Virus record (IMG/VR): IMGVR_UViG_3300029841_000297
Strand: one strand, 5' to 3'
Length of the DNA: 6,473 nt
Source: a virus
Taxonomy: Duplodnaviria; Heunggongvirae; Uroviricota; Caudoviricetes
Part shown: positions 116 to 5,582 of the stretch, in pieces
Numbering within the stretch: position 1 is the first letter of the stretch
How the letters are laid out: every line of letters begins with the position of its first letter
Position numbers and translations under genes: made by a program
Notes under the pieces: model-generated
Databases searched by the model: none
The model's input: only the letters and a program-made list of their open reading frames with translations
What the model was told of the DNA's origin: nothing

Positions 116-454
116 ATGGAATTTAAAGATTTACCTCCTTCAATCCAGGAGATTGCAGCACACACACTTCGTCATCGTCTGAACGAACTTGAATTGGAAT
201 CGGTAACAAAAAAAGACACTGATAATATGGCTCGCAATGTGCGCGATGCGTTTACTGGGCTGTTTTCAGATACAGCTTTAAATATCCATGGCACAGAGGA
301 TACAGCAAAACAATTTGCAGAAAAAGAAGTGGAAGATCCCAGTTCAAAGAGCCAGAAACAGCCAAACAACCATGAAATTAACGAACTGCTTCTGGCAACA
401 GGCTTCATAAATATTAACGAATATGAACGCCGTAAAAAAATGTTATCTGATTAA
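116..454 (+). CDS. Hypothetical phage protein, 112 aa, charged and hydrophilic; function unknown
   Basis: ATG at 116 preceded by GAGG at 106..109 (6-nt spacing); uninterrupted 112-codon frame; no motif I can recognise. Confidence 0.6.
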   Translation: MEFKDLPPSIQEIAAHTLRHRLNELELESVTKKDTDNMARNVRDAFTGLFSDTALNIHGTEDTAKQFAEKEVEDPSSKSQKQPNNHEINELLLATGFININEYERRKKMLSD

Positions 455-637
455 TCCATCAAGATATCTTTTTAGCATCAGCGTTTCTACGTTATTAAAA
501 CCATCAGATTTTAACATAGCTTCGATTCGCTGATTTAAATTGCCAACTAACTGTTGATACTGAGTAGATGGAAGCATGTGTACCAGCTCCTTGAGAACAC
601 AATAACATGCACCAAGTTTTAACTCCTGCTCTGACAT
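443..637 (-). CDS. Hypothetical small protein, 64 aa (MSEQELKLGACYCVLKELVHMLPSTQYQQLVGNLNQRIEAMLKSDGFNNVETLMLKRYLDGLIR), likely helical; opposite orientation to the rest of the operon
   Basis: ATG at 637..635 preceded on the minus strand by GGAGG at 7-nt spacing. The longer 443..709 frame in the ORF track begins at a GTG with no ribosome-binding site. Its 3' end overlaps the 116..454 gene by 12 bp. Confidence 0.55.
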   Translation of the reverse strand: MSEQELKLGACYCVLKELVHMLPSTQYQQLVGNLNQRIEAMLKSDGFNNVETLMLKRYLDGLIR

Positions 638-1212
638 TTTATCCTCCATTGAGGTTACTGGTTGAGAATGGAGACCTCTCGTGACAGCGTGTGGTCGTGC
701 GCCGGACACGGATAAGAATCCGGCACTGACAGTTTACTGAAAGGATATTTCCCTGAAAAGTCAGACCATAACGCGAAAGCGTACGGCGAGGTAGCTGGTT
801 CATAGATAGCCTGTCGTTAAATTTTCGTCGACCGTGCGCTTCCGGTTGTGGCAATCCGCGAAATGGCGCGGCGGTAAGTATGGCGGGGTTATTCCTTCCC
901 CCGTTGAGGACACCGGGTTGTCAGGTTGACCATACGCTTAAGTGACAACCCCGCTGCAACGCCCTCTGTTATCAATTTTCTGGTGACGTTTGGCGGTATC
1001 AGTTTTACTCCGTGACTGCTCTGCCGCCCTTTTTAAAGTGAATTTTGTGATGCGGTGAATGCGGCTGAGCGCACGCGGAACAGTTAAAGCAGTAAGGCGG
1101 TCTTTTACTGGCGTAACGAGCATCAACTAACCCGGCGTTAATTGTTAACTGGTTAACGTCACCTGGAGGCACCAGGCACTGCATCACAAAATTCATTGTT
1201 GAGGACGCGATA
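638..1212. promoter_or_regulatory. ~575-bp ORF-poor region with multiple perfect hairpins: candidate structured ncRNA and/or promoter-operator region for the flanking divergent genes
   Basis: No + strand ORF longer than ~23 codons. Perfect inverted repeats at 701..724 (6 bp), 771..782 (ACGC-GAAA-GCGT, GNRA-type tetraloop), 915..951 (9 bp stem, 19-nt loop) and 1162..1176; imperfect palindrome with two GTTAAC hexamers at 1136..1158. GC is about 52% against about 40% in neighbouring phage genes. Confidence 0.3.
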
Positions 1213-1401
1213 ATGGAAACGTTATTACCAAACGTTAATACGTCTGAAGGTTGTTTTGAAATTGGTGTCACTATCAGTAACCCTGTATTTACTGAAGATG
1301 CCATTAACAAGAGAAAACACGAACGGGAGTTATTAAATAAAATATGCATTCTTTCAATGCTGGCCCGTTTACGTCCGATACAAAAAGGATGTGCACAATG
1401 A
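1213..1401 (+). CDS. Hypothetical small protein, 62 aa
   Basis: ATG at 1213 preceded by GAGGA at 1201..1205 (7-nt spacing); its stop overlaps the next start in an ATGA junction (1398..1401). Confidence 0.45.
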   Translation: METLLPNVNTSEGCFEIGVTISNPVFTEDAINKRKHERELLNKICILSMLARLRPIQKGCAQ

Positions 1402-1589
1402 ATACAGCATTTGCACTTGTTCTGACAGTTTTTCTTGTTTCCGGAGAGCCAGTTGATATTGCAGTCAGTGTTCACAGGACAATGCAGGAGTGTGTGACTG
1501 CAGCAACCGAACAGAAAATTCCCGGTAACTGTTACCCGGTCGATAAAGTTATTCACCAGGATAATAACGAAATCCCGGCAGGTCTTTAA
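1398..1589 (+). CDS. Small protein, 63 aa, with an N-terminal hydrophobic segment (MNTAFALVLTVFLVSG: signal peptide or membrane anchor) and two Cys residues; probably exported or membrane-associated
   Basis: ATG at 1398 with AAAGGA at 1384..1389 (8-nt spacing). The ORF-track frame 1344..1589 shares this frame but its upstream start has no ribosome-binding site. Translationally coupled to the preceding ORF. Confidence 0.55.
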   Translation: MNTAFALVLTVFLVSGEPVDIAVSVHRTMQECVTAATEQKIPGNCYPVDKVIHQDNNEIPAGL

Positions 1590-1681: not shown

Positions 1682-4153
1682 ATGAGTAAAGTCTTTATTT
1701 GCGCCGCCATTCCGGACGAACAGGCAATAAAGGAAGAAGGTGCCGTCGCTGTAGCCACTGCCATTGAAGCCGGTGATGAACGTCGCGCCCGCGCAAAATT
1801 TCACTGGCAATTCCTGGAACATTATCCGGCTGCTCAGGACTGCGCTTATAAATTTCTTGTCTGCGAGGATAAACCCGGTATACCCCGCCCTGCCCTCGAT
1901 TCCTGGGATGCTGAATATATGCAGGAAAACCGCTGGGATGAGGCGTCTGCTTCCTTTGTCCCGGTTGAGACTGAATCAGATCCGATGAACGTCACTTTTG
2001 ACAAGCTGGCCCCTGAAGTACAGAACGCTGTCATGGTTAAGTTCGACACATGTGAAAACATCACCGTTGATATGGTGATTAGCGCGCAGGAACTGTTGCA
2101 GGAAGACATGGCAACATTCGACGGACATATCGTTGAAGCGTTGATGAAAATGCCAGAAGTTAACGCCATGTATCCGGAGCTTAAGCTGCATGCCATCGGG
2201 TGGGTTAAGCATAAATGTAAGCCTGGTGCCAAATGGCCCGAAATTCAGGCAGAGATGCGCATCTGGAAAAAACGTCGCGAAGGTGAACGCAAGGAAGCCG
2301 GAAAATACACGTCTGTTGTTGATCTCGCCCGCGCCAGAGCCAATCAACAGCACACTGAAAATTCAACAGGAAAAATCAACCCGGTCATTGCTGCCATTCA
2401 TCGCGAATACAAGCAGACATGGAAAACACTGGATGACGAACTGGCCTACGCTCTCTGGCCTGGTGATGTGGATGCCGGAAACATTGACGGCAGCATCCAT
2501 CGCTGGGCAAAAAATGAAGTTATCGACAACGACCGCGAAGACTGGAAGCGTATCTCGGCATCAATGCGCAAACAGCCTGATGCCCTTCGCTACGACCGCC
2601 AGACTATTTTTGGCCTTGTCCGTGAACGTCCGATCGACATTCACAAAGACCCTGTGGCACTGAACAAATACATTACTGAATACCTGACTACAAAGGGCGT
2701 GTTTGAAGATGAAGGAACAAATCAGAGCGCAACTGATACTCTCTCGTCGCCAGTACCAGAAACTGATGCAGTGGAAACGGCAATTCCGGACAACGAAAAA
2801 ACCGAATGCAAAGTGGAAGTCGAACCATCTGTAGAACGTGAGGGGCCGTTCTACTTCCTCTTCACCGACAAGGATGGCGAAAAATACGGTCGCGCAAACA
2901 AACTTTCTGGTCTGGATAAGGCGCTGTCTGCTGGGGCTACTGAAATCACGAAAGAAGAATATTTCGCCCGCAAAAACGGTACATACTCAGGTTCACAACA
3001 AAATACTGGTGCATCTGACACGACCGCACAACCAGGGTCAGTAAAAGTTACCGCTGACGAAGTAAACAAAATTATGCAGGCAGCCAATATCAGCCAGCCT
3101 GACGCCGATGAACTGCTTGCAGTATCACGTGGTGAATTTGTTGAAGGGATTAGCGACCCGAATGATCCGAAATGGGTTAAGGGGAACCAGACCCGCGATT
3201 CTGTGAACCAGAACCAGCAAGAAACGGAACAGAACGACCAGAAAGCGGAACAAAACAGCCCAAATGCGTTACAAAACGAGCCAGAAACGAAACAGCCTGA
3301 ATCAGTGGCGCAACAGGAAGTGGAAAAAGTCTGCACCGCCTGCGGTCAGACCGGCGGCGGCAACTGCCCTGATTGTGGCGCGGTAATGGGCGACGCAACA
3401 TACCAGGAAACATTCGATGAAGAGTATCAGCCTGAAGTTCAGGAAGATGATCCGGAGGAAATGGAAGGCGCTGAACATCCACACAAGGAGAACACTGGCG
3501 GCAATCAGCATCACGATAGCGATAATGAAACTGGCGAGACGGCAGATCACTCAATTAAGGTGAACGGTCATCAAGAAATCACATCCACCAGCAGGACGTG
3601 TGACCATCTAATGATCGACCTTGAAACCATGGGAAAAAATCCTGATGCCCCGATCATCTCAATAGGTGCAATATTTTTCGATCCGCAAACCGGAGATATG
3701 GGACCGGAATTTAGTAAGACTATCGATCTGGAAACTGCTGGCGGGGTCATTGATCGGGACACCATTAAATGGTGGCTTAAGCAATCACGCGAAGCGCAAT
3801 CTGCCATTATGACCGATGAAATCCCGTTAGATGATGCACTGTTACAATTGCGGGAATTTATCGACGAAAACTCCGGTGAATTTTTTGTTCAGGTTTGGGG
3901 AAATGGAGCCAACTTCGACAACACGATTTTGCGCCGTTCATACGAACGGCAGGGGATCCCCTGCCCGTGGCGTTACTACAACGATCGCGATGTACGCACA
4001 ATCGTTGAGCTGGGGAAAGCCATAGACTTCGATGCCAGAACGGCTATTCCATTCGAAGGTGAGCGCCATAATGCACTTGATGACGCTCGTTACCAGGCAA
4101 AATACGTTTCAGCTATCTGGCAAAAACTGATCCCGAGTCAGGCTGATTTTTAA
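1682..4153 (+). CDS. Large phage exonuclease, 823 aa: RecE (exodeoxyribonuclease VIII)-like N-terminal and middle region, acidic/Q-rich linkers, a CxxC-x10-CxxC zinc-ribbon-like motif, and a C-terminal DEDDh (DnaQ/RNase T-like) 3'-5' exonuclease domain
   Basis: GAGG at 1669..1672 about 9 nt before ATG 1682; 823-codon frame. C-terminal domain (about nt 3599..4150) carries exo motif I MIDLETMG (D at 3617..3619, E at 3623..3625), motif II WGNGANFDN and motif III HNALDDARY (H at 4067..4069), the DEDDh pattern. The segment LLAVSRGEFVEGISDPNDPKWVKGNQTRD matches what I recall of Rac RecE (from memory, unverified). Cys cluster CTACGQTGGGNCPDCG at 3332..3376. Confidence 0.8.
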   Translation: MSKVFICAAIPDEQAIKEEGAVAVATAIEAGDERRARAKFHWQFLEHYPAAQDCAYKFLVCEDKPGIPRPALDSWDAEYMQENRWDEASASFVPVETESDPMNVTFDKLAPEVQNAVMVKFDTCENITVDMVISAQELLQEDMATFDGHIVEALMKMPEVNAMYPELKLHAIGWVKHKCKPGAKWPEIQAEMRIWKKRREGERKEAGKYTSVVDLARARANQQHTENSTGKINPVIAAIHREYKQTWKTLDDELAYALWPGDVDAGNIDGSIHRWAKNEVIDNDREDWKRISASMRKQPDALRYDRQTIFGLVRERPIDIHKDPVALNKYITEYLTTKGVFEDEGTNQSATDTLSSPVPETDAVETAIPDNEKTECKVEVEPSVEREGPFYFLFTDKDGEKYGRANKLSGLDKALSAGATEITKEEYFARKNGTYSGSQQNTGASDTTAQPGSVKVTADEVNKIMQAANISQPDADELLAVSRGEFVEGISDPNDPKWVKGNQTRDSVNQNQQETEQNDQKAEQNSPNALQNEPETKQPESVAQQEVEKVCTACGQTGGGNCPDCGAVMGDATYQETFDEEYQPEVQEDDPEEMEGAEHPHKENTGGNQHHDSDNETGETADHSIKVNGHQEITSTSRTCDHLMIDLETMGKNPDAPIISIGAIFFDPQTGDMGPEFSKTIDLETAGGVIDRDTIKWWLKQSREAQSAIMTDEIPLDDALLQLREFIDENSGEFFVQVWGNGANFDNTILRRSYERQGIPCPWRYYNDRDVRTIVELGKAIDFDARTAIPFEGERHNALDDARYQAKYVSAIWQKLIPSQADF
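3599..4150 (+). other. DEDDh 3'-5' exonuclease domain within the 823-aa protein
   Basis: Motifs D-x-E, D and H-x4-D in the canonical order and spacing of DnaQ-like/RNase T-like exonucleases. Confidence 0.7.
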
Positions 4154-4211: not shown

Positions 4212-4415
4212 ATGAGCAGCTTATTTTTAACCGAAGATGAATTGCTAATATTAACGGGCTGCAAATATGCAAGCCACCAGCGAAAATGGTTAATGGAAAA
4301 CGGGCTTCCGTTCTATACCAATCGTAGTGGCAAACCGATTGTCAGCCGGGATCTATTTACCTGCAATAAAACTTTACCACCACGCGAGGTAGAGCCGAAT
4401 TTTGGTGCGATCTGA
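4212..4415 (+). CDS. xis: Excisionase-like small DNA-binding protein, 67 aa (DUF4224-type, found immediately upstream of prophage integrases)
   Basis: Position directly upstream of int, with its stop overlapping the int start (ATGA-type junction at 4413..4417). The pattern LTxxELxxLTGxKxxxxQxxWLxxNGLPF is typical of this family (recalled). Confidence 0.7.
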   Translation: MSSLFLTEDELLILTGCKYASHQRKWLMENGLPFYTNRSGKPIVSRDLFTCNKTLPPREVEPNFGAI

Positions 4416-5440
4416 TGGGAAGACGAAGGAAAAATCCTGAACACGAAAAATTACCTCCAAATGTATACCCAAATAAATATAGTTATGTATGGAAACCAAC
4501 ATCCAGAGAATCTGTCACACTAACCGCCATCAAGGATGGTTTAGCTGCTTTATGGAAAAAGTATGAGGAAACTGTAAATAATCGCGATCGTGCAATGACA
4601 TTCGGTCGCTTGTGGGAAAAATTCCTCGCCAGCGCCTGTTACAGTGACCTTAGTCCAAGAACACAAAAAGATTATCTGCAACATCAAAAAAAGTTGCTTG
4701 CCGTATTCGGTAAGGTACCAGCGGATTCCATAAAACCAGAACACATCCGTCGATACATGGACAAAAGAGGGGAGCAGAGTAAAACGCAAGCCAACCATGA
4801 AAAAAGCAGTATGTCCCGTGTTTACAGTTGGGGGTATGAGCGAGGGTACGTCAAGGCTAACCCATGTGCAGGTGTAAGTAAATTCAAGGCCAAAAACCGC
4901 GAACGATATGTAACCGACAAAGAATACCAGGCAGTATTAAGCGTTGCACCTCTTCCTGTTTTTATCGCAATGGAAATTGCCTATCTGTGTGCAGCGAGGG
5001 TTTCCGATGTGTTATCGCTGAAATGGGAACAGATTGGAAACGACGGGATATTCATCCAGCAAGGGAAAACCGGAAAAAAACAGATAAAAGCATGGAGTCC
5101 ACGATTACAGGCAGCGATCGAAAAAGCAAAACAGTTACCAAAATCTGCCTATGTGATCAGCAATCAATACGGCAACCGATATATGTACAAAGGCTTTAAC
5201 GAAATGTGGGTAGAAGCAAGAAATCGTGCTGGAAAAATTTCAGGTATTTTAACCGACTTCACCTTTCATGATCTGAAGGCGAAAGGAATTTCAGACTATG
5301 AAGGAAGCAGCCGGGATAAGCAACTTTTCTCTGGTCACAAAACCGAAGGGCAAGTGCTAATCTATGACAGGAAGGTTAAAGTTTCACCAACACTTGATGT
5401 CCCGTTACCTGAAAATATTCCAAGAAAATATTCCAAGTAA
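4415..5440 (+). CDS. int: Lambda-family tyrosine integrase, 341 aa, with N-terminal arm-binding domain
   Basis: N-terminus MGRRRKNPEHEKLPPNVY resembles lambda Int MGRRRSHERRDLPPNLY. Catalytic-region matches: AARVSDVLSLKWEQI (Arg I), QQGKTG (Lys), FHDLK (box II), GHKTEGQVLIYDR (His and Tyr nucleophile) versus lambda RVGDLCEMKWSDI / SKTG / FHELR / GHKSDTMASQYRDD. Lies next to a tRNA gene. Confidence 0.93.
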   Translation: MGRRRKNPEHEKLPPNVYPNKYSYVWKPTSRESVTLTAIKDGLAALWKKYEETVNNRDRAMTFGRLWEKFLASACYSDLSPRTQKDYLQHQKKLLAVFGKVPADSIKPEHIRRYMDKRGEQSKTQANHEKSSMSRVYSWGYERGYVKANPCAGVSKFKAKNRERYVTDKEYQAVLSVAPLPVFIAMEIAYLCAARVSDVLSLKWEQIGNDGIFIQQGKTGKKQIKAWSPRLQAAIEKAKQLPKSAYVISNQYGNRYMYKGFNEMWVEARNRAGKISGILTDFTFHDLKAKGISDYEGSSRDKQLFSGHKTEGQVLIYDRKVKVSPTLDVPLPENIPRKYSK

Positions 5441-5492: not shown

Positions 5493-5540
5493 TGGCGGAG
5501 AGAGGGGGATTTGAACCCCCGGTGGAGTTGCCCCCACTCC
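5493..5540. other. Probable att core / prophage-host junction overlapping the 3' portion of tRNA-Ser (attL in lambda convention); extent approximate
   Basis: The integrase is transcribed toward the tRNA and ends 52 bp from its 3' end. Tyrosine-integrase prophages at tRNA genes carry a core identical to the tRNA 3' segment. The second copy needed to delimit it is outside the window. Confidence 0.45.
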
Positions 5541-5582
5541 GGTTTTCGAGACCGGTCCGTTCAGCCGCTCCGGCATCTCTCC
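5493..5582 (-). tRNA. serU: tRNA-Ser (anticodon CGA), 90 nt, class II tRNA with long variable arm
   Basis: Reverse complement reads GGAGAGATGCCGGAGCGGCTGAACGGACCGGTCTCGAAAACCGGAGTGGGGGCAACTCCACCGGGGGTTCAAATCCCCCTCTCTCCGCCA: 7-bp acceptor stem, anticodon loop CU-CGA-AA, T-loop GGTTCAAAT, 3' GCCA. Adjacent to mtfA as in E. coli (recalled gene order). Confidence 0.95.

Follow-up and report, generated by a model that had tools for sequence, protein, structure and literature searches.

An intact YdfE-type prophage protein with a DEDDh exonuclease domain on a RecE-related body

RecE (exodeoxyribonuclease VIII) of the Rac prophage carries a 5'-3' nuclease head of the PD-(D/E)XK type and is accompanied by RecT, its gene lying in the early-left region after kil/dicB-type genes and ahead of xis-int. 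In the RecE proteins of Rac-SA53, Gifsy-2 and mEp237 an N-terminal Exonuc_VIII domain (PF06630) precedes the C-terminal PD-(D/E)XK domain (PF12684), and the function of the RecE N-terminal part is described as unknown in a 2023 review (PMC11611040). YdfE is known from the Qin prophage of E. coli K-12 as a pseudogene, which IS2 cuts after residue 256 and of which all downstream parts are gone. Among the 3'-5' exonucleases relevant to the present case, Rv2179c of M. tuberculosis is a chromosomal, standalone RNA exonuclease and both founder and member of the Pfam family PF16473. DexA of the virulent phage T4 is likewise a standalone protein, of 227 amino acids (aa) with extra loops. It is a 3'-5' DNA exonuclease with a preference for single-stranded DNA (ssDNA), and its standalone E. 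coli homologue EcD ('HREX') was reported to digest DNA containing 5-hydroxymethylcytosine (5hmC) and to protect against T4 when expressed from a plasmid (NAR 2025, PMC12153337). Here we describe an 823-aa protein encoded at positions 1682-4153 of the IMG/VR virus record IMGVR_UViG_3300029841_000297, a stretch of 6,473 nucleotides (nt) referred to as the window, in which a body partly shared with RecE ends in a DEDDh exonuclease head.

An intact YdfE with a DEDDh head

The open reading frame (ORF) starts with an ATG that follows a GAGG motif located 9-12 nt upstream, and PHROG 2082 ('exonuclease', profile length 823) covers the protein end to end. Over aa 1-256 it is 96% identical to K-12 YdfE, whose neighbours in the Qin prophage (ydfA-B-C, dicF, dicB and ydfD) are the same as those of the window gene, and we therefore conclude that the window carries an intact YdfE, whereas the K-12 gene is truncated. 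YdfE is a protein very frequently met in prophages that already bears a name and separate labels in Pfam, PHROG and PGAP, a point that was absent from the first-pass annotation. Precomputed annotation places YdfE_N (PF27430) and YdfE_C (PF27432) on cluster representatives 96-100% identical to the window protein; PGAP names proteins of this type 'exonuclease' or '3'-5' exonuclease', many NCBI records name them '3'-5' exoribonuclease', and several phage records name them exodeoxyribonuclease VIII. The architecture is thus already catalogued in PGAP, Pfam and PHROG, and the object itself is not new. A literature search returned no functional study of YdfE or of a RecE-like protein with a DEDDh head. 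The parts of the protein, all on the plus strand, are as follows.

1682..4153, +, whole coding sequence of the intact YdfE-type exonuclease, 823 aa, ATG start, phrog_2082 match 1-823/823
1682..1981, +, N-terminal alpha/beta module, aa 1-100, part of YdfE_N (PF27430), predicted local distance difference test (pLDDT) 94-97 in the AlphaFold2 (AF2) model
1994..2296, +, helical module of YdfE_N, aa 105-205, AF2 pLDDT 94-98
2387..2716, +, central five-helix module, aa 236-345, common to almost all RecE-like and YdfE-like proteins examined
2843..2977, +, beta-hairpin and helix module, aa 388-432, AF2 pLDDT 95-97
2996..3601, +, acidic Q/N-rich segment predicted to be disordered (YdfE_C, PF27432), aa 439-640, pLDDT mostly <50
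3332..3376, +, Cys4 motif CxxC-x7-CxxC, aa 551-565, present in RecE as well
3545..3556, +, head-swap junction, codons ~622-625, where similarity to the PD-(D/E)XK paralogue stops
3605..4120, +, DEDDh 3'-5' exonuclease domain (Rv2179c-like / DexA family), aa 642-813, PF16473
3617-3619, 3623-3625, 3917-3919, 4067-4069 and 4082-4084, +, catalytic codons of the DEDDh residues D646, E648, D746, H796 and D801

The C-terminal head matches PF16473 (Rv2179c-like 3'-5' exoribonuclease) over aa 642-813 with E=1.4e-67 and 227.2 bits (cut-off 27). The match spans positions 2-177 of the 177 in the profile, and a weak RNase_T match was found there too. All five DEDDh residues are in place, D746 lying within the motif NGANFD, which bears out the DEDDh C-terminus that had been proposed for this giant ORF from its sequence. 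Neither PF12684 nor PF06630 was matched in a Pfam scan of the window protein, whereas true RecE proteins scanned in parallel matched, so that the C-terminus belongs to PF16473 and not to the PD-(D/E)XK family of RecE.

T4 DexA (8KEL) was the only relative detected among PDB sequences (E=1.5e-6, 28% identity), and no chain named Rv2179c was returned when the PDB was searched with either the window protein or a profile of heads. D646, E648, D746, H796 and D801 align with DexA D7, E9, D119, H186 and D191, placing both proteins in the DEDDh family, whereas the window head is fused to a body. W152 and D169 of DexA were proposed as positions of 5hmC recognition (PMC12153337); in the window head they correspond to Y766 and K779, respectively, the alignment of the D169 loop being uncertain, while D90, the Asp associated with the DexA tetramer, is kept as D718. 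For comparison with EcD, we recovered an EcD-like gene by means of the published forward primer and identified it by its fit to the paper (MIDTET start, A78); no exact match to the published reverse primer was found. The encoded 189-aa protein belongs to the same Pfam family and is 37% identical to the window head over 183 aa. It stands alone, an Ala (A78) corresponds to DexA D90, and the two proposed recognition positions are W and E, whereas the window protein, with D718, Y766 and K779 at these three places, has a body of 640 aa joined to its head. As the W152 and D169 positions are not kept and D718 is retained, the window head is not of the EcD type by the paper's own criteria.

Two further observations concern members of this head family. 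The recovered EcD-like gene (L115:6404-6970, minus strand) belongs to a P2/186-like prophage, in whose early operon it is flanked by a DUF4761 gene and a gene for a Dam-type methyltransferase, so that the 'bacterial' defence gene of PMC12153337 appears to be phage-borne. In the cluster representative (50% identity) P0351, the head at aa 567-752 reads DxK instead of DxE and FA instead of FD and has thus lost two catalytic residues; judging from these substitutions, it may be an inactive head kept on a RecE-like body.

Exchange of the head together with recT

E. coli also encodes 900-aa paralogues that, according to precomputed Pfam annotation, carry YdfE_N and YdfE_C with PF12684 in place of PF16473. 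With one of them the window protein shares 92.8% identity over aa 1-625 and no similarity beyond, and DNA similarity to the locus of a 900-aa paralogue (L005) extends from dicF as far as window nt 3548 and no further, which places a clean swap at about codon 622. Two genomes were examined, and in each the 900-aa gene and recT overlap, with lar, a DUF1187 gene, exc and int next in order. From the junction and this downstream gene order it follows that the exchanged unit comprises the PD-(D/E)XK head, recT and two small genes on one side and the DEDDh head alone on the other. A publication on such a head swap with coupled loss of recT was not found in the literature search.

Loci from IMG/VR show the same coupling. 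Eighty loci were retrieved by the shared linker, 77 of them with a DEDDh head, and a tblastn search covering up to 10 kb upstream and the sequence downstream to the contig end detected a RecT relative in none of the 77, all of which have a YdfE_N-type N-terminus. Conversely, RecT adjoins the nuclease gene in all 80 IMG/VR loci retrieved by the PD-(D/E)XK head, with a stop-codon overlap in 79. RecT and the PD-(D/E)XK head are thus lost jointly. No annealase gene is present in the window, nor between terminase and integrase in the PGAP-annotated TUM1880 prophage, which is 98% identical to the window; none is annotated in the complete 46-kb phage Tritos either, whose ten unassigned early proteins are without an annealase Pfam family. 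The first-pass annotation had noted that an annealase partner was missing nearby, which holds, and had taken the architecture to indicate a role other than classical RecET recombination, which these comparisons support well by inference (RecT in 0 of 77 against 80 of 80 loci). They likewise show that the DEDDh form is not a standard RecE always paired with RecT.

The gene is maintained. Sixty-seven copies in IMG/VR could be evaluated: 61 encode an intact protein of 800-840 aa, and 6 are truncated. Conservation of the catalytic residues extends to 61-62 of 62 copies, that of the four motif Cys to 60-62 of 62 intact copies. Purifying selection acts on the gene, the median ratio of nonsynonymous to synonymous divergence (dN/dS) relative to the window copy being 0.12 in aa 1-345, 0.09 in the head and 0.34 in the linker. 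mEp460, Tritos, HannyBb and Evi are isolated phages that have the gene. Of 5,426 complete E. coli genomes, 3,533 contain the whole gene at a coverage of at least 80%, 4,048 (75%) the DEDDh head, taken alone, and 1,730 the Rac-type PD-(D/E)XK head. Separately, we observed that the median dS in loci L009-L088 is 3-4 times lower in the head (3590-4153; 0.034) than in the body (1682-3556; 0.11-0.13), which suggests a more recent spread or exchange of the head than of the body.

Body, family and genomic setting

An AF2 model of aa 1-640, built on an alignment of 45 sequences, is confident for aa 1-100, 105-205, 245-340 and 388-432, while confidence is low at aa 346-382 and across nearly all of aa 439-640, including the Cys4 motif (C551-x2-C554-x7-C562-x2-C565). 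To either side of this motif the composition is acidic and Q/N-rich, with 18 Q/N and 10 D/E residues in aa 500-550 and 20 D/E against 3 K/R residues in aa 570-640. We detected no structural or sequence relatives of the body, and a profile of the central module gave only spurious matches to designed repeat proteins among PDB sequences.

By BLASTP, Rac-SA53 RecE is 63% identical to the window protein over aa 439-621, a region that includes the Cys4 motif and the acidic linker, and weakly similar at aa 262-336. The NCBIfam ExoVIII model NF007259 scores 273.7 bits against a cut-off of 1269 and aligns aa 246-625 to model positions 271-602 only. Rac RecE agrees with the window protein in genomic slot, in the central helical module (aa ~236-345) and in the Cys4 acidic linker, whereas it differs in having an Exonuc_VIII (PF06630) instead of a YdfE_N N-terminus and a PD-(D/E)XK head with RecT instead of a DEDDh (3'-5') head without it. 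Judged by the marks of RecE/ExoVIII, the window protein has the shared central module and linker and lacks a PD-(D/E)XK head, a score reaching the NF007259 cut-off, an adjacent RecT and PF06630. The RecE resemblance described in the first-pass annotation is therefore real but partial (274 of the 1269 bits, aa 246-625). The Cys4 motif and the acidic Q/E/N-rich linkers it had singled out are present as well but are ordinary RecE features, and as such no distinguishing mark of this protein.

Among 1.84 billion representatives clustered at 50% identity, no more than 190 are related to the first 440 aa. Among 59 diverse long representatives, 10 have an Rv2179c-like head, 12 a PD-(D/E)XK head and 19 an Exonuc_VIII N-terminus; each head occurs with each type of N-terminus, and most of the 59 possess the central module (aa ~236-345). 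Salmonella phage 118970_sal3 has, in the same slot directly ahead of its integrase, a DEDDh gene that stands alone and is 57% identical.

In 20 of the 59 representatives, including 710-aa Klebsiella proteins, the C-terminus is formed by a third conserved domain of ~275 aa (alignment A5; L089:5279-6103). It bears the motif KKSLTDAxKKALSxLGFSADV, has neither a Pfam match nor a PDB sequence match, and owes the label 'exonuclease' to PHROG alone. We had suspected a Rad52/Erf-like annealase, which is unsupported by the PDB sequence search and by an hhalign comparison with P22 Erf (probability 0.2%). In L089, the sole locus examined, the third-head gene is followed by a gene of the Sipho_Gp157 family. 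This locus belongs to OM816834.1, 'Stenotrophomonas phage vB_SmeS_BUCT708', and yet the N-terminal 410 aa of its 710-aa protein are 100% identical to Klebsiella pneumoniae chromosomal 710-aa proteins, and near-identical Klebsiella proteins were all that a homologue search with this protein retrieved. It may be worth checking the host given for OM816834.1.

The window comes from a lambdoid prophage that has integrated at tRNA-Ser(CGA), next to mtfA, and constitutes its left end. Intact dicF, dicB and ydfD follow one another in it as in the dicBF operon of the K-12 Qin prophage, and the 823-aa gene is the last cistron of the dicB-ydfD operon, ahead of xis-int. The neighbouring features are listed below.

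1-93, ydfC 3' end, at the start of the window
978..1029, +, DicF small RNA (sRNA), Rfam RF00039, 76.7 bits, in the early-left operon of the 823-aa gene
1213..1401, +, dicB, cell-division inhibitor, in the operon 5' of the 823-aa gene
1398..1589, +, ydfD (DUF1482), directly 5' of the 823-aa gene
4212..4415, +, DUF4224 excisionase-like gene, starting 58 nt past the stop codon of the 823-aa gene
4415..5440, +, tyrosine integrase, intact in the window
5493-5582, -, tRNA-Ser(CGA), prophage end, adjoining mtfA

A promoter and terminator scan of the window gave no signal exceeding chance, which fits a single long early-left transcript. Between ydfC and DicF, positions 160-695 form a variable cassette of low GC content (about 0.40) that is replaced by other sequence in TUM1880. 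Its two convergent ORFs with a small overlap, 116-454 (plus strand, 112 aa, phrog_2151) and 443-709 (minus strand, 88 aa, phrog_4987), belong to PHROGs without assigned function, and neither gave a PADLOC match. In the TUM1880 prophage, which is otherwise 98% identical, the annotation reports a frameshift in the integrase (L002:18454-19504).

Possible functions of the DEDDh form

We consider it most likely, at about an even chance judging from sequence comparisons, that the protein is an early-lytic 3'-5' DNA exonuclease on a RecE-type body and not a RecET-type recombinase. Its layout would comprise four small folded modules (aa 1-432), a tether of ~200 acidic, disordered residues with a Cys4 knuckle, and the DEDDh head in the position of the RecE nuclease. 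During lytic growth, the body would bring the tethered head to a target that it has in common with the body of RecE, and the head, which would probably bind metal ions and act as a dimer, would remove nucleotides from DNA 3' ends, either ssDNA or 3' tails. As this would take place without a dedicated annealase, the protein would not form part of a two-component recombinase of the RecET/Red type. Several points weigh against such a role. PF16473 is named for an RNA exonuclease, and a DNA substrate is suggested by the closer similarity to DexA and EcD. The body has neither a fold nor a sequence relative, so that its part in delivery is read from the architecture. A 3'-5' exonuclease should moreover destroy the 3' tails used in recombination, which makes the benefit to the phage unclear. 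Annealases other than RecT were looked for in two genomes only, the TUM1880 prophage and Tritos, and the IMG/VR loci are closely related, which means that the 0 of 77 and 80 of 80 do not count independent events.

An unlikely alternative is a prophage defence nuclease acting in superinfection exclusion, which like EcD would degrade the modified DNA of incoming T-even phages. The digestion of 5hmC DNA and the plasmid-borne T4 protection reported for EcD (PMC12153337) speak for it, together with the 37% identity and the Pfam family that the 189-aa EcD-like protein shares with the window head, and with the presence of the head in 75% of complete E. coli genomes. However, the residues proposed for 5hmC recognition are not kept (W152 to Y766, D169 to K779), the tetramer Asp D90 is retained as D718 where EcD has Ala, and PADLOC gave the window protein only a generic, cas-associated DEDDh match. 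Since the gene is the last cistron of a repressor-controlled early-left operon and no promoter of its own was detected, expression in the lysogen is doubtful, and a defence role would leave the 640-aa RecE-type body unexplained. The roles in host takeover or anti-defence that the first-pass annotation had floated found no direct support in our analysis either, in contrast to its outline of a RecE-like body with a DEDDh in place of a PD-(D/E)XK head and no annealase. That the exonuclease serves recombination after all, together with host RecA/RecFOR or with an unrecognised annealase encoded elsewhere, also appears quite unlikely to us. The genomic slot and the body are those of RecE, the N-terminal part of RecE in its full-length form increases linear-linear recombination (PMC11611040), and T4 DexA is involved in intron homing (PMC12153337); yet the polarity is opposite to that of all SynExo nucleases, RecT is missing from every locus with a DEDDh head (0 of 77), and the candidate proteins of Tritos lack an annealase Pfam family.

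We regard as rather improbable that the protein is an RNA exonuclease that trims or degrades host or phage RNA during lytic growth. Such a substrate would agree with the naming of PF16473 after the M. tuberculosis 3'-5' exoribonuclease Rv2179c, with the name 3'-5' exoribonuclease in many NCBI records and with the processed sRNA DicF encoded in the same operon, but the PDB sequence searches lead to the DNA exonuclease DexA and to no chain named Rv2179c, and the head replaces a DNA exonuclease on a body that otherwise serves DNA recombination. That the gene is a decaying, functionless recE remnant of defective prophages, as the IS2-truncated pseudogene ydfE of K-12 and the six truncated copies among 67 might imply, is hardly credible: with 61 of the 67 copies intact, dN/dS values of 0.09-0.12 in the folded parts and conserved catalytic residues, and with the gene present in viable isolated phages, we rejected the pseudogene reading.

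Beyond the early-lytic DNA exonuclease that we favour, we put forward as a tentative and less probable idea that the RecE/YdfE body is a general platform for interchangeable heads that process DNA ends, namely PD-(D/E)XK with RecT, DEDDh and the third head of ~275 aa, and that the DEDDh form, the commonest in E. coli, has a DNA-end job that has gone unrecognised. If so, the DEDDh form might turn ends into 5'-tailed forms that escape RecBCD in phages without Gam, or it might clear away DNA with 3' ends by which host defences are triggered or guided.

About three quarters of the complete E. coli genomes contain this gene, often as multiple copies, and phage records still commonly list it as 'exodeoxyribonuclease VIII' or 'RecE'. 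For RecE it has the wrong nuclease and no annealase, and correcting the label affects prophage annotation as well as searches for recombineering enzymes. The 93% identical paralogue with a RecE head represents a natural swap experiment, bearing on the N-terminal part of RecE and on what a 3'-5' exonuclease contributes to the growth of lambdoid phages.

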